From sequence record MW883060: a stretch of 39,713 nt of DNA; one strand, written 5' to 3'. Positions 817 through 39,713 of the stretch are shown piece by piece; the first letter of the stretch is position 1; the number at the start of each line of letters is the position of its first letter. The notes beneath the pieces were generated by a model, which was not told the origin of the DNA, made no database searches, and saw only the letters and a list, made by a program, of their open reading frames with translations. This DNA is from Escherichia phage vB_EcoP_SYGE1. The position numbers and the translations under genes were made by a program.

Positions 817-2577
817 TCACCACTCAATGAAAGACGTACCGTAACCCTCATCGTCCTCAGAGTACACCTCAACTCCTCCTACAGACATCTCAATGATGTG
901 CGTGGCAGACACTGTAGGGCGCATCATGTGCTCCTCAAGGAAGTCAGCAATCACTTCACCTTCGACCTTAATGGAATCCAACTGCATGGACTCACGGAGA
1001 TACTCAACGCCTAACGCAAGGGCATCCAATCGGTCATCATGAGCCAGAGCGCCTTTATCACGGGTGATACGGGTCATCTGGTAGAACAGTGAATACTTAA
1101 CGTCATGCTTACCGTCTACATCACGAGCGGACTGGTAGTCGGCCCTAATGACCTCATCACGAATGATAAGGCGGTGAGTCTGCATGACTGGCTCAAGGGT
1201 GTCACAAATACGTACCTCCTTCATTCCACGAGCACGAATCTCTTCCATAGCGCAGTTGTGGTGTTTAAGAAGGATAGGACTGAACACCTTACCAAACATA
1301 CCATCACCGAAGTTACTCTCATAGACAACCGTATGGACTCCCCATTGCTTCGCTTTCTTAGCGAGCAACTCAAGGGTCTTATCGGAGTAACCATCACGGA
1401 AACCTCCAGCTTCCATAAGGTAGATGTAACCGTTCAGGGTGTACAGTACAGCGTAACCTGTTTCGTCCTTACCGCGACCACTAGGGTCAATGACCAGAAT
1501 CTTCTGTTGGTACTGACCTGAGTTGTTGGAACAATCATGATAGGTATGCAGGTCATCACCTTTAAGACCAACGTTAGGAAGGTCCTCAATGATGTTCTGA
1601 CGGTTCGGAAGCCACTGGTAATGCATTGGGGCCTTCTCTAAGTCTAAGGCCGCTACGATAGCGTCACGGAGCCTCAGAGGGTACTTCTCGGCATCACTCA
1701 GGTTCGGGTTAAGCATGAACTGTAGTGTGAAGCCAGCCTTACCGTATTCCAACTCACGCTCACGCAGGTCATCACGGTCAAAGCGCACAGGGTCTGTAGG
1801 AGTCCCAGCGAGTGCCTCAGGGTTCTCATCGTACTCAGCGCGTAACATAGGAGCAAGACGCTGTGCGTAATAGAGGTTCTCTTCATGCGTCCTTGGGTAC
1901 AGAGCAGGCCAGATGATAGTGGTGTACCCACGGTTATCCTCAAGTTCCTTATAGAGAGTCATCTCAGTTTGAGGTGTACCAAGGTAGATAACGCGAGAGG
2001 AAGGCAGCGGTTTAAGTAACGCAGCGAACTCCTGAACGAGAGTCCACAGCTTCTCACGGGCACCCATAGTCGCACTGTTAGACGGAATCTCAACGTCATC
2101 CGCAATGATAATGTCAGCACGGCTACCAGTTAACTGACCAGTGATACCCACTGATTTAACACTAGGAGAGTGGTCAGGTTTAGCTGGGCCAACGTCAAAG
2201 CTGATTACAGAATCACGCTGTCCGGGTCTTGGCTTCAACTCGCTGAGAAACGGTAGAAGGTCAATGATGTTCTTAATGAAGATGGAGTTAGCGTCTGCAC
2301 GCTCCTTAGAGGCTGATACGATAAGTATCTTCAACTGAGGGTCTCTCCATAAGGACCACACAACGAACGCACATGTGATGAACGACTTACCGATACCACG
2401 GAAAGCCTGTAGGATAAACTTCTTGTTTTCTCCATTCGCAAGCACCTTAGCCATGTCAATCTGACACTTAGTGGGCACCGGAAGATTTAACGCCTTCCAT
2501 AAGACGAACAGGAACGCCACGAAGTCTCCTTTCAGTTGCGCCACTACGAGCGCATTACGATTGGCTTGAGTAGACAT
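817..2577 (-). CDS. Terminase large subunit (DNA maturase B), gp19
   Basis: 586 aa with ATG start; near identical to recalled T7 gp19 ([18 protein letters not shown]..., GIGKSF ATPase motif). Confidence 0.95.
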
Positions 2578-3397: not shown

Positions 3398-3601
3398 TTA
3401 CTCCTTGTTGGCTTTCTTCCAGTCAATCATCTTATCGACTACCTTGGCACCAATCTGAACCACTGTGTAGGCGATAGCAGCAATATAGAACCACTCGTTT
3501 AATGAAAGTCCCCAAAATAGTCTGGCAGCACCATCGGCTACACCAGTCCCTACAATCGGAGCAGCCTTCACTACCTCGTTGTTAAAATCTAATGACAACA
3601 T
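3398..3601 (-). CDS. Holin (gp17.5), 67 aa
   Basis: Internal ATG at 3599..3601 preceded by AAAGGAGGACACACACAC; MLSLDFNNEVVKAAPIVGTG... with a hydrophobic core and charged C-terminus. The 84-aa track ORF is an upstream extension. Confidence 0.85.
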   Translation of the reverse strand: MLSLDFNNEVVKAAPIVGTGVADGAARLFWGLSLNEWFYIAAIAYTVVQIGAKVVDKMIDWKKANKE

Positions 3602-3654
3602 TGTGTGTGTGTCCTCCTTTAAAGTTGAGACCGTCCGTGGTCTATTGGTCATCC

Positions 3655-5607
3655 TTATTGGTTCTGTACTAGAATACGAGTTGGTACAGAGTGGCGATCC
3701 TCATCGTTACGGAATGTTCGCCCGTTGTTGGAGATAGTGAACTTCAACCAGCCACCATCAGACGAGATGAAGTAAGACGCATTGTCACCAATAGGCACAG
3801 CGTTCCAGCGTCCGTTAGTCTGAATCCAGATAGTTCTCCATCGGACATCCTGTGAGAGACCTACTGAAACACCACCACCCACATCACCTTTCCACACCTC
3901 AGCCCACCCAGCATTCTTATTAACGTATCGACCATCAGCTTGGGCTTGTGTCAATCGACCATTGACCAAGTTGTTCACTTCTCCTTTGGTGTAGGCGTGT
4001 TCGTTTAGTCGGTGGTTTACCCATGCATCAATGTACATTCCATACTTATCGATATATAGGTTACCATCTGGTGGGATATACCAACCAGTCGAGCTAACAA
4101 GAGTACCATCACTCCTGAAATCGAAGTGAGTCACACGGAGATAATGTCTGATAAAGAAGTTAGCGCCATCGCCATTGTTGTATAAGCACTTAGCATACAG
4201 GTGCTCTTTGCCCCAAATGGTTGCTCGCTCAAGGAGATAGTTTACATCACCCTGCTTCTCAATGTTATGCTGAACATCAGGTGTCAGACTGCTAGTCCAC
4301 TGGTTCCAACCACCACCATGCGTTTTCTTAGTGAAACTTGAAGTGGTAGAATCAATGAAAAAGTTCTTATTAGTGTGCACCCCATCGGCTTTAAGTGAAA
4401 CTGATGTGTTGTTTTGGTAACTATGGAGATATACATCTGCGCTACCTTTGTTTGCACGACCTACGTACCAATCATTTACCCCAGCTTGCGACCCAAACAC
4501 CGCTGTTGTTCCTTCATTATTACTAGAGGTTGACTGTAGGTTAAGTCTTGGTTGTTCAGTGTTGGAGACGAAGCTACCATGTTCAGCATAGAAGTCACCA
4601 TTACTAAGTTTAACCCCTGATTTAAAAGTTGGGGTTGCTCCCTCTACCTTCTCAATGGTTCCAGCTAGGCCATTCATATTACCCAACTTGTTGGCCTCAG
4701 ACTTAGCACGGTCTGCTTCACTCTCAGAGCGGTTTGCCTCAGTGTTGGCTCGGTCAGCATGTCCCTTAGCGGTCTCAGCATGTGCAGCAGCCTTGGCAAC
4801 CTCAGCAGCAGCTTTAGTCACTTCTCCGGCAGCACGATTGGCCTCATCACGGGCACGATTGGCCTCAGAGTTGGAACGGTCAGCTTGCTTCTCGGCCTCA
4901 GCGACACTTGCGGTCATACTGTCAGCATAACCTTTAGCACGATTGGCCTCAGAGTTGGAACGGTCAGCTTGATTCTTGGACTCAACTGCTTGTGCCGTAG
5001 AGACACCTGCCTGCTGGGTCGAGCGGTCAGCTTCACGTTTCGCGCGGTCAGCTTCGTCGCGTGAGCGGTTGGCTTCCCTGTTGGAGCGGTTAGCGTGTTC
5101 ATCAGCTTTAGTAACAGCGTTCCACACAGAGGTCTCACGTTCCTTAATCTGCTTCAGCGGGACGGCATCATAGTCGCCAGTAGCGAACGCTAGGTTAACA
5201 ATCTTACGACCACGGGCATCCAAGTGACCATTATTGTTGACACCGATAGTATCCGCAGTCATGTCACGAGCCTCTTCCGCTACGTGCATTGTTTGAATCT
5301 GAGCAACGTTAAGGTCATACGCACGGAGGATTGAGCCGTCCGTAAAGTCAACCAAGCGGTCGGTCGTGGAGGTTACTCGACGTAACTCGATGGTCGTGTA
5401 GCCATCTGACGGACCCCAAGCCTTGGTCAGTGAGATGGTAGTACGTGTAGCAAAACGGTAGTCCGTATTAATCGTAAGGACCTTGCGGTCTACACCAATA
5501 AGAGTTACCACTACGAACTTACGGGCTAGATACTCAAACGGGATATTAAAATCACGCTTGGAGCCATCTAACTGGTAAGTCAAAACGGTTTTAATTACGT
5601 TAGCCAT
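3655..5607 (-). CDS. Tail fibre protein gp17 (650 aa), chimeric
   Basis: N-terminal ~150 aa match the recalled T7 gp17 tail-attachment domain; the middle is a long acidic/basic coiled-coil with ADRSNSEANRA-type repeats; the C-terminal domain is only distantly T7-like. Confidence 0.9.
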   Translation of the reverse strand: MANVIKTVLTYQLDGSKRDFNIPFEYLARKFVVVTLIGVDRKVLTINTDYRFATRTTISLTKAWGPSDGYTTIELRRVTSTTDRLVDFTDGSILRAYDLNVAQIQTMHVAEEARDMTADTIGVNNNGHLDARGRKIVNLAFATGDYDAVPLKQIKERETSVWNAVTKADEHANRSNREANRSRDEADRAKREADRSTQQAGVSTAQAVESKNQADRSNSEANRAKGYADSMTASVAEAEKQADRSNSEANRARDEANRAAGEVTKAAAEVAKAAAHAETAKGHADRANTEANRSESEADRAKSEANKLGNMNGLAGTIEKVEGATPTFKSGVKLSNGDFYAEHGSFVSNTEQPRLNLQSTSSNNEGTTAVFGSQAGVNDWYVGRANKGSADVYLHSYQNNTSVSLKADGVHTNKNFFIDSTTSSFTKKTHGGGWNQWTSSLTPDVQHNIEKQGDVNYLLERATIWGKEHLYAKCLYNNGDGANFFIRHYLRVTHFDFRSDGTLVSSTGWYIPPDGNLYIDKYGMYIDAWVNHRLNEHAYTKGEVNNLVNGRLTQAQADGRYVNKNAGWAEVWKGDVGGGVSVGLSQDVRWRTIWIQTNGRWNAVPIGDNASYFISSDGGWLKFTISNNGRTFRNDEDRHSVPTRILVQNQ

Positions 5608-5659
5608 TTGACCTCCTTAAAGTAAATCTAAGAGACTACAGGGAGAAGATTCTTTCGCC

Positions 5660-5682
5660 TCTCCCTATAGTGAGTCGTATTA
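5660..5682 (-). promoter_or_regulatory. Phage RNAP promoter phi17
   Basis: Perfect reverse complement of TAATACGACTCACTATAGGGAGA. Confidence 0.9.
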
Positions 5683-28565: not shown

Positions 28566-29021
28566 TTATCCACGGTCAGAAGTGACCAGTTCGTTCTTCT
28601 CCCACCAACGCTTAAGGTCGAACGAAGGGCAAGCCTTAGGTGCCACGTCATGATGCGCCCGAAGCACAGCGCCTTCGTACTTAGCCAGCAGTGTGACAAG
28701 CAGTGAGCGGAGGGATTGCATTTGGGCTGGCGTAAAGTTAGCGTTAAACTTACCTTTATCGCCGATACCACCTACAAGGCAGACACCAATAGAGTTGTGA
28801 TTGTAGTCCTTAGCGTGAGAGCCTACAGCCATCTCATCTCGGCCTTCCTCCACAGTACCATCGCGCTTGATGATAAAGTGATACCCCACATCGAGCCAAC
28901 CTTGCTCTTTATGCCACTGGCGAATCTCACGGACACCTACATTCTGACTTGGCTTGGTAGCCGAGCAGTGAACAAAGATTGCGTCAGTAGATTCACGTTG
29001 TTTAAACTGTACACGAGCCAT
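28566..29021 (-). CDS. Lysozyme / N-acetylmuramoyl-L-alanine amidase gp3.5 (also the phage RNAP inhibitor in T7)
   Basis: 151 aa, MARVQFKQRESTDAIFVHCSATKPSQNVGVREIRQWH..., near identical to recalled T7 gp3.5. Confidence 0.95.
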   Translation of the reverse strand: MARVQFKQRESTDAIFVHCSATKPSQNVGVREIRQWHKEQGWLDVGYHFIIKRDGTVEEGRDEMAVGSHAKDYNHNSIGVCLVGGIGDKGKFNANFTPAQMQSLRSLLVTLLAKYEGAVLRAHHDVAPKACPSFDLKRWWEKNELVTSDRG

Positions 29022-29470
29022 TATTTCTTTCCTCCTTTCCTTTTTAATCTATCAAAGGGGACCTTCTTCTTGGGTTCCTTTATCCACTCAGCAGGTATCA
29101 GTTTATCAGCGAACTTAATGCCATGCTTTTCGCAGAACTCTCCATAAGACGTTGGAGAACCTTTGTATAACTTAGTACGTGAGCTTGAGAAGACAATACG
29201 GATGTCTAACTCGGGGTGCTGCTCCCTAATTAATAAGTGCTTCTTTCTATCATCGCTTTCCCACAGACCCTTCGTCTCAACGAATATACCGTTGGGAAGT
29301 AAGAAGTCTGGGGTGTAAGTGTGACTGCTCGCCGGAATTACATAAGGCACTTTCCACTCTTCATACTCGAATTTAATACCTTTTGATTCCAACTGCTTTG
29401 AAACCTTGTCCTCTAGGCCAGAGCGAAACGCTCCAACCTTTCGGATTCCTTTAGCGCCGTAACCTGCCAT
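29021..29470 (-). CDS. Endonuclease I (Holliday junction resolvase) gp3
   Basis: 149 aa from ATG at 29468..29470 preceded by GGGAGGCGAC; MAGYGAKGIRKVGAFRSGLEDK... Confidence 0.9.
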   Translation of the reverse strand: MAGYGAKGIRKVGAFRSGLEDKVSKQLESKGIKFEYEEWKVPYVIPASSHTYTPDFLLPNGIFVETKGLWESDDRKKHLLIREQHPELDIRIVFSSSRTKLYKGSPTSYGEFCEKHGIKFADKLIPAEWIKEPKKKVPFDRLKRKGGKK

Positions 29471-29870
29471 GTCGCCTCCCTTTGCGTATATCACAAATAG
29501 TCTGTTGGGAGACACCATAGGTGCGAGCTAAGGATACATTGGACTCGCTGGACTCCATGATTGCCATTACGTCTTCGTCTGAAAGTTTATACCCCTTGTG
29601 TGAGCGACCCTTATTTACCATGTCAGCGGAGTTCTCTTTTGGAGTTCCTATGGATAGGTGTTCAGGGTTACAACATAATGGATTATCACAGGAGTGCAGG
29701 ACGGTAGAACCTTTAGGAGCATTAGACATTATGCGGTGGCAGTATACAACCTTTCCGGTATTACTGCACCACACCTGCCCGTACCCTTTACTGTTCGTAG
29801 CACCCTGCCACTCCCAACACCCAGAGGAAGTCACCTTGATTCGCTCAAGGATTTTCTCCCGCAGTTCCAC
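29451..29870 (-). CDS. gp2.8, HNH-like nuclease-fold protein with a C-terminal HTH-like segment
   Basis: 139 aa with GTG start; HSCDNPLCCNPEHL is an HNH-type motif; the C-terminus VSLARTYGVSQQTICDIRKGR is HTH-like. Confidence 0.7.
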   Translation of the reverse strand: MELREKILERIKVTSSGCWEWQGATNSKGYGQVWCSNTGKVVYCHRIMSNAPKGSTVLHSCDNPLCCNPEHLSIGTPKENSADMVNKGRSHKGYKLSDEDVMAIMESSESNVSLARTYGVSQQTICDIRKGRRHGRLRR

Positions 29871-30569
29871 TTAGAAATCCCCGTCTTCGTCTACTTCATC
29901 GGACTCTTCGTCGTCTTCGTCCCAGCTTTCTTCGTCGCGTGGTTTGCTCGCTTTGGCAGAACCAGAGGCAACATAGCCGTTCTCTTCGACTTCATCGGCC
30001 CAATCGTCTTCACCGCCACCAAAGGTAGCCAGTTCGACCAGCATCACGGATTCCAGTTGCAGCTTAACGCTTGCACCAACAGCGGTGTTCCACTTGTAAG
30101 GAACCAGAGAGTATTTGACTTTCAGTTTTGAGCCACCACCGATAATCGGAACGTCTTCCATCTTCTTACCTTTGGAGTCAACCACAACCAGATTGATGTG
30201 CTTGGTCTCTTTGGTCTTCTTGTCTTGGAAAGACGCGTAGCATTTGAACTTAAAGGTAGTCGTACCGTCACCATTATCGAAGAACGGCATGTCACCTTCA
30301 TACGGTTTCAGCGGTTTCTTACCACGAGCTACAGCAGGTGGATTAGCTTCGTATTCCTCAACGGCAGCAGCATAAGCCTCTTCGTGACACTTCACGATTT
30401 CATCGACCATGCGTTGGCAGCGTGGGTCTTTGTTGGGAGTAGTCAGGTCAACTTTGTAGACACCGCGAGGGTTCCCAAAGCCACGCTCCTCGTTACCGTA
30501 GTCCGGCTTGGAGAGGTAAGCGTAAGGTTCAGCAGTACCCAGCGCAGAGGTGAAAATCTTCTTAGCCAT
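29871..30569 (-). CDS. Single-stranded DNA-binding protein gp2.5
   Basis: 232 aa from ATG at 30567..30569; acidic C-terminal tail ...DEDDEESDEVDEDGDF; the track ORF begins at an upstream TTG. Confidence 0.95.
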   Translation of the reverse strand: MAKKIFTSALGTAEPYAYLSKPDYGNEERGFGNPRGVYKVDLTTPNKDPRCQRMVDEIVKCHEEAYAAAVEEYEANPPAVARGKKPLKPYEGDMPFFDNGDGTTTFKFKCYASFQDKKTKETKHINLVVVDSKGKKMEDVPIIGGGSKLKVKYSLVPYKWNTAVGASVKLQLESVMLVELATFGGGEDDWADEVEENGYVASGSAKASKPRDEESWDEDDEESDEVDEDGDF

Positions 30570-30613
30570 AATGTTAATCTCCTTTAGGTTTCGTTTGTTT
30601 CTCAAAGGGAGTC

Positions 30614-33414: not shown

Positions 33415-33437
33415 TGTCCCTATACTGAGTCGTATTA
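33415..33437 (-). promoter_or_regulatory. Phage RNAP promoter phi1.3
   Basis: Minus strand reads TAATACGACTCAGTATAGGGACAATG. Confidence 0.85.
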
Positions 33438-33917: not shown

Positions 33918-33940
33918 CCCCCCTATAGTGAGTCGTATTA
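33918..33940 (-). promoter_or_regulatory. Phage RNAP promoter phi1.1B
   Basis: Minus strand reads TAATACGACTCACTATAGGGGGGAA. Confidence 0.85.
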
Positions 33941-39258: not shown

Positions 39259-39281
39259 TCTCTCTATAGTGAGTTGTATTA
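39259..39281 (-). promoter_or_regulatory. Phage RNAP promoter phiOL
   Basis: Minus strand reads TAATACAACTCACTATAGAGAGATAC. Confidence 0.8.
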
Positions 39282-39543: not shown

Positions 39544-39713
39544 AGGGTCTCAAAGAGACACTCAAGGCAACACTCAAAGAAACACTCAAAGACAAACCCA
39601 AGGGTCATCCCAACCCTTTAGGGACCCTCAAAGTCAACTGAAAGTTGACTCAAGGTGATTGGCTGGGCTTTAGGACCCCTATGGGGGGAACTTTGGGTCC
39701 GTACACTGTGAGA
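39544..39713. repeat. Direct terminal repeat, left-end copy in conventional T7 orientation
   Basis: Identical to 1..170. Confidence 0.9.

Follow-up and report, generated by a model that had tools for sequence, protein, structure and literature searches.

Architecture and genomic setting of the SYGE1 tail fibre

Gene 17 of Escherichia phage vB_EcoP_SYGE1 (hereafter SYGE1) very probably encodes a modular T7-type lateral tail fibre of the "extended" class, in which the middle cassette has been swapped by recombination and the DNA repeats of the shaft are inactive for length variation. In the ORF list, the gene occupies positions 3655..5607 and encodes 650 amino acids followed by a stop codon. 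All positions refer to the window, the whole 39,713-nt stretch that was analysed (record MW883060), and all of the features described here lie on its minus strand. The PHROG profile phrog_4242, "tail fiber protein", covers the product end to end (E=1.5e-238). The sequence is a 100% match to "hypothetical protein SYGE1_5" of the phage itself, which forms a singleton cluster (P0001); the GenBank record calls it a hypothetical protein, while the UniRef name for the same sequence is "Tail fiber protein".

SYGE1 is a T7-like coliphage of the genus Teseptimavirus, with genome identities of ~96% to JeanTinguely (Bas64) and ~94% to T7. JeanTinguely, the nearest whole genome, is collinear with SYGE1 and has a tail fibre of 643 residues. 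Gene 17 is flanked by gene 16 (internal virion protein D; 1318 residues, with a transglycosylase-like sequence at the N-terminus) and gene 17.5 (holin), and this neighbourhood is syntenic with those of T7, BA14, and JeanTinguely. A perfect 23-nt consensus phi17 class-III T7 RNA polymerase promoter overlaps the gene 16 stop codon (5660..5682; 0 mismatches in the pattern search, with a chance expectation of 0 matches), at the same location as phi17 in T7 and BA14. The Shine-Dalgarno sequence AAGGAGG, read from the sequence, lies at 5612..5618, upstream of the ATG at 5607-5605. Gp17 of SYGE1 combines the synteny and promoter of a T7 gp17-type fibre with the T7-type adaptor, heptad shaft, pyramid domain, and tip described below. 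By homology to T7 gp17, it probably forms a homotrimer, six of which would be attached to the tail.

The adaptor domain (residues 1-150; 5158..5607), defined by PF03906, sequence identity, and structure matches, would dock the fibre onto the tail, as it does at the gp11/gp12 interface in T7. PF03906 (Phage_T7_tail) matches residues 1-155 with E=1e-64 (217 bits against the Pfam cut-off of 25.2 bits). Among the T7 gp17 structures, 7BOZ, 7EY9, and 8DSP represent the N-terminal part, and 4A0T/4A0U represent residues 371-553; between them, they account for matches to the pyramid region and the tip of SYGE1 gp17 as well as to its N-terminal domain. The adaptor matches 7BOZ, 8DSP, and 7EY9 by both sequence and fold, and the whole-sequence match to 7BOZ has E=8.6e-127, with the best stretch at residues 1-194 (domain E=7.4e-89). 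The adaptor is 93% identical to that of T7 and 98% identical to that of JeanTinguely, as compared to 73-80% for Berlinvirus and Teetrevirus adaptors, and is therefore of the Teseptimavirus type. The T7-type N-terminal domain recognised in an earlier sequence-only reading of this DNA is thereby confirmed.

Distal modules and comparison with T7

Beyond the adaptor, the protein consists of an α-helical shaft (residues 151-317; 4657..5157), a linker, two domains that we call A and B, a neck, and a tip. The linker (TIEKVEGATPTFKSGVKLSNGDFYAEHGSF; residues 318-346; 4570..4656) was delimited by alignment and contains β-strands at residues 318-328 in the AF2 model. It is shared with vB_SEqdws-315 and Yep-phi, and is 72-75% identical to the linkers of clusters P0008 and P0009. 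Domain A (residues 347-419; 4351..4569) is homologous to the pyramid domain of T7 gp17, as judged from PF20744 and identity. PF20744 matches residues 356-418 (E=7.7e-10; 39.1 bits, with a Pfam cut-off of 21.7 bits), and the match was repeated on the fragment. The phmmer alignment pairs residues 309-437 with residues 325-454 of T7, and domain A is 33% identical to T7 residues 374-434 and 83% identical to its counterpart in vB_SEqdws-315. The Pfam name "gp37_trimer" suggests a link with T4 gp37, which we rejected: the match falls on the part equivalent to the T7 gp17 pyramid, and the same family is found in T7 and T3.

Domain B (residues 420-513; 4069..4350) is a β-rich module defined by alignments; it is an insertion that separates the pyramid-like domain from the DGNLYI motif. 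It is marked by the motif string GGWxQWT...LLERA...LYAKCLYNNG...GWxIPxDGNLYI upstream of the neck. Its identity is 76-85% over 84-85 residues to P0002-P0006 (the BA14, Sekstaphage-1, IME390, and FE44 types), 70% to Yep-phi, and 56% to P0016. In the alignment, domain B is absent from the T7, T3, and vB_SEqdws-315 fibres. A phmmer search of 1.84 billion representative proteins for domain B outside gp17 fibres yielded only the BA14-type cluster as genuine. The Ig-like repeat protein P0121 was judged a spurious homologue, as it shares only a short GWxxxPD motif. Domain B has no specific PHROGs or Pfam match and no fold match. The AF2 monomer pLDDT values of domains A and B are 40-65 in both the full-length and C-terminal models, and because of this low confidence we placed their boundaries from alignments and indel junctions.

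The neck (residues 514-562; 3922..4068), defined by alignment and AF2, comprises the DGNLYIxKYGxYIDxWVN motif and a helical connector, with AF2 helices at residues 526-534, 541-544, and 554-557. It is 26-27 residues longer than the T7 linker, as shown by 27 gap columns in T7 and T3 and by anchor arithmetic (+26), and the same 27-residue insertion is reported in the Sxt1 fibre (PMC11680406). The C-terminal tip (residues 563-650; 3658..3921) is a T7-type receptor-binding β-sandwich, homologous to residues ~465-553 of 4A0T. It is predicted with pLDDT above 90, and is 51% identical to T7 and 94% identical to JeanTinguely. The DE loop has one residue fewer than in T7, and the HI-loop "hook" residues S541-R542 of T7 correspond to R638-H639.

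How does SYGE1 gp17 differ in length from T7 gp17? At 553 residues, T7 gp17 is 97 residues shorter, in good agreement with the ~100 residues noted previously. The excess is composed of +42 residues in the shaft, -58 after the shaft, +88 for domain B, +26 in the neck, and -1 in the tip. The loss after the shaft reflects a shorter stretch from the end of the shaft to the pyramid core, ~71 residues in SYGE1 as compared to ~129 in T7. After the pyramid-like domain, SYGE1 has an insertion of ~88-94 residues, domain B, and T7 has none. The shaft thus supplies only 42 of the 97 extra residues, and the remainder is the ~94-residue inserted domain and the 26-27-residue neck insertion, minus the post-shaft loss. 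The non-T7 character of the distal half is supported. Domain-wise alignment to T7-group fibres reveals a mosaic of a T7-type adaptor, an ADRS-type shaft, and a non-T7 distal half.

The "extended" fibre class, already described for Sxt1 (PMC11680406) and ETEP21B (PMC11267873), includes the Berlinvirus-type fibres BA14 gp17, Sxt1/Sekstaphage-1 p38 (PMC11680406), ETEP21B ORF38 (PMC11267873), FE44, CarlSpitteler, and IME390/PHB20. SYGE1 gp17 shares with it the 159-residue ADRS shaft, the 27-residue neck insertion, and domain B. Its full-length identity is 70-72% (BA14, Sekstaphage-1, and ETEP21B), and the class lengths are 654-667 residues. By module, the identities are 86-92% for the shaft (BA14, Sekstaphage-1, P483, and IME390), 76-85% for domain B, 68-90% for the neck, and 73-89% for the tip. 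In contrast, the ~110-130 residues between the shaft and domain B have only 21-35% identity to the class in global alignment, and residues 311-428 gave no BLAST hit against P0002-P0006; at this place, SYGE1 has the vB_SEqdws-315-type linker and domain A. Since the class-typical segment is replaced, SYGE1 gp17 is a recombinant variant within the "extended" class, rather than a straightforward orthologue.

Probable recombination of the middle cassette

How was this combination of modules assembled? Gene-level and whole-genome blastn comparisons with JeanTinguely delimit a swapped cassette at residues ~320-507 (4087..4649). It is the only part of gene 17 without nucleotide homology to JeanTinguely, and one of only three such non-homologous blocks genome-wide. 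The flanks, gene nt 1-958 and nt 1522-1953, are 95.9% and 93.1% identical, respectively, and at the protein level the shafts are 96% and the necks 85% identical. Over residues ~321-507, JeanTinguely carries a 285P/BSP161-type cassette and SYGE1 carries domains A and B, with an apparent amino acid identity of 21-46%. The fibre had been called chimeric, and a mosaic it is, with its cassette at residues 321-507; however, the junctions relative to JeanTinguely are at residues ~320 and ~508, in the distal half, and not at the adaptor/shaft boundary.

The relatives of the cassette modules are found in different phages. The fibre of the Enterobacter phage vB_SEqdws-315 (554 residues) has the linker and domain A, its domain A being the nearest relative of that of SYGE1 (83% amino acid and 86% nucleotide identity), but lacks domain B, with the junction FFI|DGNLYI. 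Conversely, the fibres of the Yersinia phages Yep-phi and Yepe2 (569 residues) have the linker and domain B but lack domain A, with the junction GSF|TKKT. The vB_SEqdws-315 and Yep-phi fibres have the same shaft, linker, neck, and tip as SYGE1; each has one domain, while SYGE1 has both. At the nucleotide level, vB_SEqdws-315 matches gene nt 220-1257 at 86% identity, and BA14, Sekstaphage-1, and IME390 match from residues ~423-428 (nt ~1268-1282) onward at 73-80%. The search for a cassette donor found none with more than 86% nucleotide identity.

The A+B tandem occurs in only one other fibre among the 120 clusters listed. This is P0016 (631 residues), a metagenomic protein from Logan SRR12008660 with Studiervirinae synteny, in which the order is adaptor, ADRS shaft, linker, A, B, neck, and tip. 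It is 71% identical to SYGE1 in the adaptor and 38-59% identical in the other modules, its neck lacks a 13-residue segment of the long neck, and its backbone is Berlinvirus-like, unlike that of SYGE1. Because the vB_SEqdws-315-type homology (to residue 419) and the BA14-type homology (from residue ~423) do not overlap, corroboration of the A/B junction comes only from the distant P0016.

Such adjoining but non-overlapping homologies, ending at nt 1257 and beginning at nt ~1268-1282, would also be expected if the contig were a chimera of two co-propagated T7-like phages, misassembled within the conserved fibre gene, and the singleton status of the exact protein fits this as well. However, the reading frame is intact across all of the junctions, both flanks revert to the JeanTinguely-like backbone at the background identity, and SYGE1 was plaque-purified (PMC8248792). 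Moreover, the independent and divergent P0016 shares the linker-A-B-neck-tip order and a homologous A/B junction (DNSKSSFRKET versus DSTTSSFTKKT). We consider an assembly artefact extremely improbable.

We favour a genuine recombination event, for which the pattern of homology suggests the following course. Homologous recombination may have taken place at two conserved junction motifs, KLGNMNGLAG at the shaft end and DGNLYIxKYG before the neck. This would have replaced an internal cassette of ~187 residues with the A+B tandem, in a backbone like that of JeanTinguely. The exchange could have proceeded in either direction, as a gain of the cassette by SYGE1 or its loss or replacement in JeanTinguely.

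The heptad shaft and its repeats

The shaft, the rod of the proximal half-fibre, was assigned from its heptads, the AF2 model, and its length class. Residues 162-308 form 21 unbroken heptads with the consensus x-x-E-A-[N/D]-R-[A/S], with Ala or Val at position 4 in 21 of 21 and Ala or Ser at position 7 in 19 of 21. The lag-7 self-identity is 0.364, as compared to 0.119 +/- 0.024 in 2000 shuffles (z=10), and the AF2 monomer model is a single continuous helix over residues 152-317 (166 residues). The shaft ends at the family-wide conserved junction motif EA(D/N)KLGNMNGLAG. Pfam matches to Borrelia_P83 and Mitofilin fell below the cut-offs and reflect only the coiled-coil composition. The heptad-repeat character asserted by the sequence-only reading is thus borne out, and all of the peptide repeats that it quoted are present in the translation.

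The distance from the DAVP anchor to the KLxNxN anchor is 159 residues in 24 of 24 ADRS-class proteins having both anchors (the query and 23 relatives), and 117 residues in 59 T7/T3-type proteins. The SYGE1 shaft thus exceeds that of T7 by six heptads (42 residues, or ~6 nm with a rise of 0.148 nm per residue), and is of a different sequence type (27% identity). We compared it with the shafts of 36 related clusters, formed at 90% identity, which come from Teseptimavirus, Berlinvirus, and Teetrevirus. In 33 of them, the length is the same as in SYGE1 and the identity is 77-96% (59-96% over the ADRS-type shafts as a whole), so the repeat-rich shaft is a conserved module and not a peculiarity of this phage. 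The exceptions are two single-heptad deletions, neither of them the four-heptad change discussed below, and one 15-heptad insertion (P0035); every shaft indel is a multiple of seven residues. The metagenomic P0036 lacks query residues 248-254 and P0044 lacks residues 265-271, exactly one heptad each, at tandemly repeated heptads. Judging from these comparisons, the shaft length looks constrained rather than variable.

At the DNA level, a repeat search detected two copies of a 48-nt direct repeat, copy 1 at 4937..4984 (gene nt 624-671; peptide ESKNQADRSNSEANRA) and copy 2 at 4853..4900 (gene nt 708-755; peptide EAEKQADRSNSEANRA). The copies are identical at 45 of 48 positions, including an exact run of 35 nt, and are dispersed, lying 84 nt (four heptads) apart. 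In 500 codon shuffles, the longest exact repeat was 16 nt. All of the repeat spacings in the gene are multiples of 21 nt. Tandem Repeats Finder reported a weak array at 5018..5076, with a 21-nt period, 2.8 copies (REANRS / RDEADRA / KREADRS), 74% matches, and a score of 60; it is the sole array, and no long, near-perfect head-to-tail array exists in gene 17. The near-identical copies had been pointed out before, with coordinates accurate to within a few bases, while the 36-mer quoted for them exceeds the 35-nt run by one base, an "a" at its start.

Do these repeats change the length of the fibre? If the 48-nt and 21-nt repeats acted as a slippage or recombination device, they would vary the shaft length, and hence the reach of the fibre, within populations, as had been proposed from the sequence. 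In its favour, the repeats exist and greatly exceed the chance expectation, and a deletion from one 48-nt copy to the other would cost the shaft precisely four heptads and preserve the reading frame. In addition, P0035, P0036, and P0044 demonstrate that in-frame indels of heptad units do occur on evolutionary time scales. Against this, the ADRS-type shafts of three genera are so uniform in length, and the 84-nt (28-residue) indel expected from recombination between the 48-nt copies is absent from all 36 related clusters, so slippage-driven variation in repeat number is not supported. Both copies are present in all seven relatives whose gene DNA was compared, without excess intragenomic similarity, and the tandem array is short and imperfect. 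Copy number does not differ among close relatives in the way expected of a contingency or phase-variable locus. On the basis of the shaft lengths, we rejected slippage or recombination at the 48-nt repeats as an active mechanism, and regard such a device as very unlikely. Gene conversion between the copies was likewise rejected: their intragenomic identity is 0.828 and the cross-genome paralogous identity is 0.824, with no excess. In Sekstaphage-1 and Yepe2, copy 2 has diverged, with an intragenomic identity of 0.58-0.67. Instead, the direct repeats would be the trace, in the DNA, of an ancient heptad duplication that selection on the coiled coil has maintained. Accordingly, striking DNA repeats within a coiled-coil gene need not mean length variation.

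Receptor recognition and host range

SYGE1 was isolated on the rough K-12 strain MG1655 and lysed 16 of 20 strains (PMC8248792). In the BASEL study, all of the tested Studiervirinae, including JeanTinguely, depended on the LPS core (PMC8594841), and the LPS core is also the receptor of ETEP21B (PMC11267873). It is thus still used by all of the characterised relatives (PMC8594841, PMC11267873), while the host ranges of relatives with the SYGE1 fibre class exceed that of T7 (PMC11680406, PMC11267873). Considering the sequence differences, it is plausible that the receptor specificity of SYGE1 differs from that of T7. We propose that reversible adsorption depends, as in T7 and JeanTinguely, on the binding of LPS-core sugars by the loops of the tip. 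The set of E. coli strains recognised would be modified by the changed loop residues, the greater reach of the fibre, and possibly domain B.

Could domain B be a second, independent receptor-binding module, for a sugar or an outer-membrane protein, and the source of the broad range? The Yep-phi fibre, which carries domain B, reportedly interacts with Ail, an outer-membrane protein, as its secondary receptor (PMC10254400, citing Zhao et al. 2013). Sxt1, which also carries it, infects 15 of 72 ECOR strains, as compared to 5 of 72 for T7 (PMC11680406), and the lysis of 16 of 20 strains by SYGE1 points in the same direction. The domain is dispensable for fibre assembly, because vB_SEqdws-315 lacks exactly this domain. 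However, conservation of 70-85% across E. coli, Yersinia, and Erwinia phages is unusual for a specificity determinant, differences in the tip confound the host-range comparisons, domain B may be no more than a structural spacer bead, and it has low pLDDT values and no fold assignment. A receptor-binding role for domain B is therefore doubtful in our view. A wider proposal, which we put forward with similar reserve as a tentative one, incorporates this role. The distal half would consist of autonomous trimeric "beads", inserted or excised precisely at very short identities (SF...SF around A and D...D around B). The A+B form would be the fullest, and possibly ancestral, version, from which the Yep-phi and vB_SEqdws-315 forms would have arisen by deletion of one domain each. 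Domain B would serve as a second module for receptor binding and contribute to the broad range of SYGE1 (lysis of 16 of 20 strains). If this were true, additive, domain-wise host-range engineering in the T7 system could be tested with SYGE1 as a natural scaffold.

Returning to the swapped-cassette, "extended" T7-type fibre that we favour, its weight for basic biology is small, as all of the modules are known, and the "extended" architecture and its likely link with a broader host range have been published for close relatives. The practical value of the domain map is modest. The map suggests candidate sites for engineering, namely the tip loops, the clean junctions at which domain A or domain B is naturally deleted, and the KLGNMNGLAG and DGNLYI recombination joints. 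SYGE1 itself is a phage of a therapeutic cocktail for bovine mastitis.

Genome setting of the fibre gene

The window carries an exact 170-bp direct terminal repeat at its two ends (1-170 and 39544-39713), and therefore represents the entire linear genome; the same repeat length is given in the SYGE1 paper (PMC8248792). The genome is complete and T7-like, lies in the reverse complement of the standard T7 map, and is ~96% identical to JeanTinguely (Bas64, Teseptimavirus) and ~94% identical to T7. A search with the T7 promoter consensus yielded nine matches, all on the minus strand: five perfect class-III sites, at 5660, 12952, 17327, 18363, and 21310, and four sites with two mismatches, at 715-737, 33415-33437, 33918-33940, and 39259-39281. 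This strand bias is consistent with a single transcription direction.

Gene 17 (3655..5607, minus strand), encoding the 650-aa tail fibre, is situated between gene 16 (1318-aa product) and the holin gene, downstream of a perfect phi17 promoter (5660-5682, minus strand) and with AAGGAGG as its ribosome-binding site. The fibre matches “hypothetical protein SYGE1_5” of vB_EcoP_SYGE1 at 100% identity; this mastitis-cocktail phage was isolated on MG1655 and lysed 16 of 20 strains of E. coli, and its publication contains no analysis of the fibre (PMC8248792). The neighbouring holin gene 17.5, as called, is an 84-aa ORF (3398-3652, minus strand) using an upstream ATG 2 nt past the gene 17 stop codon; the start that resembles T7's is an internal ATG, at 3601 (MLSLDF..., 67 aa), with AAGGAGG just before it.

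Domain composition relative to T7 gp17

The SYGE1 fibre exhibits all of the testable defining features of a T7 gp17-type fibre. The sequence-only reading is confirmed on all of its factual points, and its interpretation is partly borne out. It had recognized a T7-type N-terminus, and residues 1-150 are indeed 93% identical to T7 gp17, with a PF03906 match (E=1e-64) and matches to the solved T7 N-terminal structures. Nucleotide homology to T7 gene 17 ends at ~nt 420 (aa 140). The estimate that the protein is ~100 aa longer than T7 gp17 was also accurate, as the T7 protein has 553 aa, a difference of 97.

Where do the additional residues reside? On this point the sequence-only reading is not supported. 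Anchor arithmetic assigns +42 aa to the shaft; the other terms are a loss of 58 aa from where the shaft ends to the pyramid core, a gain of 88 aa from that core to the DGN motif, a neck longer by 26 aa, and a tip shorter by 1 aa. In the alignment, the difference in the neck shows as a gap of 27 columns in T7 and T3, and the +88-aa stretch is a discrete inserted module, hereafter called “domain B” (aa ~420-513). The preceding domain A (aa ~347-419) matches PF20744 above the cut-off and is 33% identical to T7 residues 374-434; judged by sequence, it is a homologue of the T7 pyramid domain.

The heptad-repeat shaft

Residues 162-308 form 21 unbroken heptads with the consensus x-x-E-A-[N/D]-R-[A/S], in which position 4 is Ala or Val in all 21 and position 7 is Ala or Ser in 19, and the peptide repeats quoted in the sequence-only reading are present among them. 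The lag-7 self-identity is 0.364, as compared to 0.119 +/- 0.024 in shuffles (z=10). In line with the proposed long coiled coil, AF2 predicts a single continuous helix over residues 152-317, and the shaft indels, all of which are multiples of seven residues, lend a coiled coil independent support. The T7 shaft is likewise heptad-periodic (lag-7 identity 0.357), yet its sequence is dissimilar, with 27% identity to that of SYGE1. Two discrete shaft lengths exist, 117 aa in the T7/T3 type and 159 aa in the type found here (the ADRS shaft), and they differ by exactly six heptads. With each residue of an alpha-helix contributing a rise of 0.148 nm, the 42 extra residues would add ~6 nm of rod.

This shaft is no novelty of SYGE1, a further point on which the sequence-only reading is not supported. 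It occurs without gaps, at the same place and length, in JeanTinguely (96% identity), P483 (92%), BA14 (91%), Sekstaphage-1 (88%), and IME390 (86%), and in about 35 of the 120 database clusters among the matches listed. The ADRS shaft is a conserved module that is not peculiar to this phage.

Do the DNA repeats drive shaft-length variation? The repeats themselves are real: two 48-nt copies, at 4853-4900 and 4937-4984 (minus strand), are identical at 45 of 48 positions and share a 35-nt exact run, while the longest exact repeat in 500 codon shuffles is 16 nt. The spacings between repeats are all multiples of 21 nt, namely whole heptads. Recombination between the 48-nt copies is expected to change the length by 84 nt (28 aa), and such a change is absent from all 36 ADRS shafts, 33 of which are identical in length. 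Among these relatives, slippage or recombination at the repeats is therefore not supported as an active source of length variation. All seven relatives for which the gene DNA was compared carry both copies, with copy 2 diverged in two of them, and the identity between copies within genomes (0.828) equals the paralogous identity across genomes (0.824), giving no sign of gene conversion. We conclude that an old duplication of heptads, kept by coiled-coil selection, left these repeats as its trace in the DNA, and that the length of the shaft is under constraint and not variable.

Two related fibres each lack exactly one heptad between near-identical neighbours: P0036 (593 aa) at query positions 248-254 (EANRARD/EANRAAG) and P0044 (730 aa) at 265-271 (EVTKAAA/EVAKAAA). 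Nothing else in the family hints at slippage by heptad units. The sole large length variant among the 36 shafts is that of P0035 (758 aa, NCBI), whose composite shaft (aa ~150-412) has a T7-type start, WQARNETLQFRN..., followed by an additional ~105 residues, or 15 heptads, within which AAQSAMAAEQHKASA is duplicated, and then a full ADRS shaft.

A probably swapped cassette in the distal half

The proposal of a chimeric fibre with a non-T7 distal half holds; the junctions fall elsewhere than had been placed, at aa ~320 and ~508 in the comparison with JeanTinguely. Gene nt 1-958 (aa 1-320) and 1522-1953 (aa 508-650) are 95.9% and 93.1% identical to the JeanTinguely gene, respectively, and both values equal the genome background. 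For the intervening 563 nt, nucleotide comparison detected no homology to that gene, and this cassette is one of only three such blocks genome-wide. The breakpoints adjoin two motifs that are kept across the aligned fibres: EA(D/N)KLGNxNxLAG, where the shaft ends, and DGNLYIxKYG, ahead of the neck (DGNIQGTKWG in T7/T3). Such motif-flanked breakpoints are the pattern expected of homologous recombination, which probably occurred at these conserved joints.

The two parts of the cassette have different closest relatives. For the linker and domain A, it is Enterobacter phage vB_SEqdws-315 (nt 220-1257, 86%; domain A, 83% amino-acid identity), and from domain B on, the BA14, Sekstaphage-1, and IME390 types (73-80% nucleotide and 76-85% amino-acid identity). 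The vB_SEqdws-315 fibre lacks exactly domain B, with the junction FFI/DGNLYI, and the Yep-phi and Yepe2 fibres lack exactly domain A, with the junction GSF/TKKT; in SYGE1, an SF dipeptide flanks domain A on both sides. Among the 120 clusters in the matches listed, the A+B tandem recurs only in P0016, a metagenomic fibre 53-56% identical to that of SYGE1 in A and B. Its contig, from a Berlinvirus-like phage, has the syntenic order gp16-gp17-holin-gp18, indicating that the arrangement is natural and old, though rare.

When aa 425-520 were compared by phmmer with 1.84 billion representative proteins, only the BA14-type cluster and one Ig-repeat protein matched, the latter judged spurious; the module is thus confined to Studiervirinae fibres. 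Neither predicted models nor structure searches yielded a fold assignment for domain B. A second receptor-binding site in the enlarged region was proposed by the ETEP21B authors (PMC11267873), and the Yep-phi fibre, which has domain B, is reported to contact Ail, an outer-membrane protein, as a secondary receptor (PMC10254400). The tandem, taken with the relatives that cleanly lack one domain or the other, could mean that the distal fibre evolves “bead-wise” and that domain B is a second module for binding, a scenario that we regard as rather doubtful.

Relation to the extended fibre class

The SYGE1 fibre shares most features of the extended class of Berlinvirus-type fibres, its sole departure being the stretch that links the shaft to domain B. 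It is 72% identical to the fibre of Sxt1 (Sekstaphage-1), which is described as having insertions, a helical linker longer by 27 aa, and a tip 54% identical to that of T7, and as having been gained by recombination from Berlinvirus-like phages; Sxt1 infects 15 of 72 ECOR strains, as compared to 5 of 72 for T7 (PMC11680406). Identity to the extended-class fibre of ETEP21B, whose receptor is the LPS core (PMC11267873), is 70%. The BASEL study found LPS-core dependence in all Studiervirinae tested, including JeanTinguely (PMC8594841). The SYGE1 fibre is a rare combination of modules, and its class, having recently been described, is already known.

Other observations

An HNH homing endonuclease ORF (139 aa, 29451-29870, minus strand; PF13392, E=4.8e-6, above the cut-off; a zf-His_Me_endon match just below it) lies between gene 2.5 (SSB, 29871..30605) and gene 3 (endonuclease I, 29021..29518), in a block without JeanTinguely homology. 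The adjacent 28566-29449 region has 86% identity against a background of 93-98%, as expected in the neighbourhood of a homing site. The third block without homology, 585-810, immediately follows the large terminase gene (817..2577, minus strand) on its downstream side; at the corresponding place, a putative homing endonuclease gene is present in JeanTinguely and only short ORFs in SYGE1.

Two T7-family fibres among the matches bear bacterial source labels: P0054 (599 aa, 39,671-bp contig), “Staphylococcus hyicus”, and P0010 (641 aa, 12-kb contig), “Escherichia coli”. They are most likely from lytic-phage contigs contaminating bacterial assemblies, rather than host genes.
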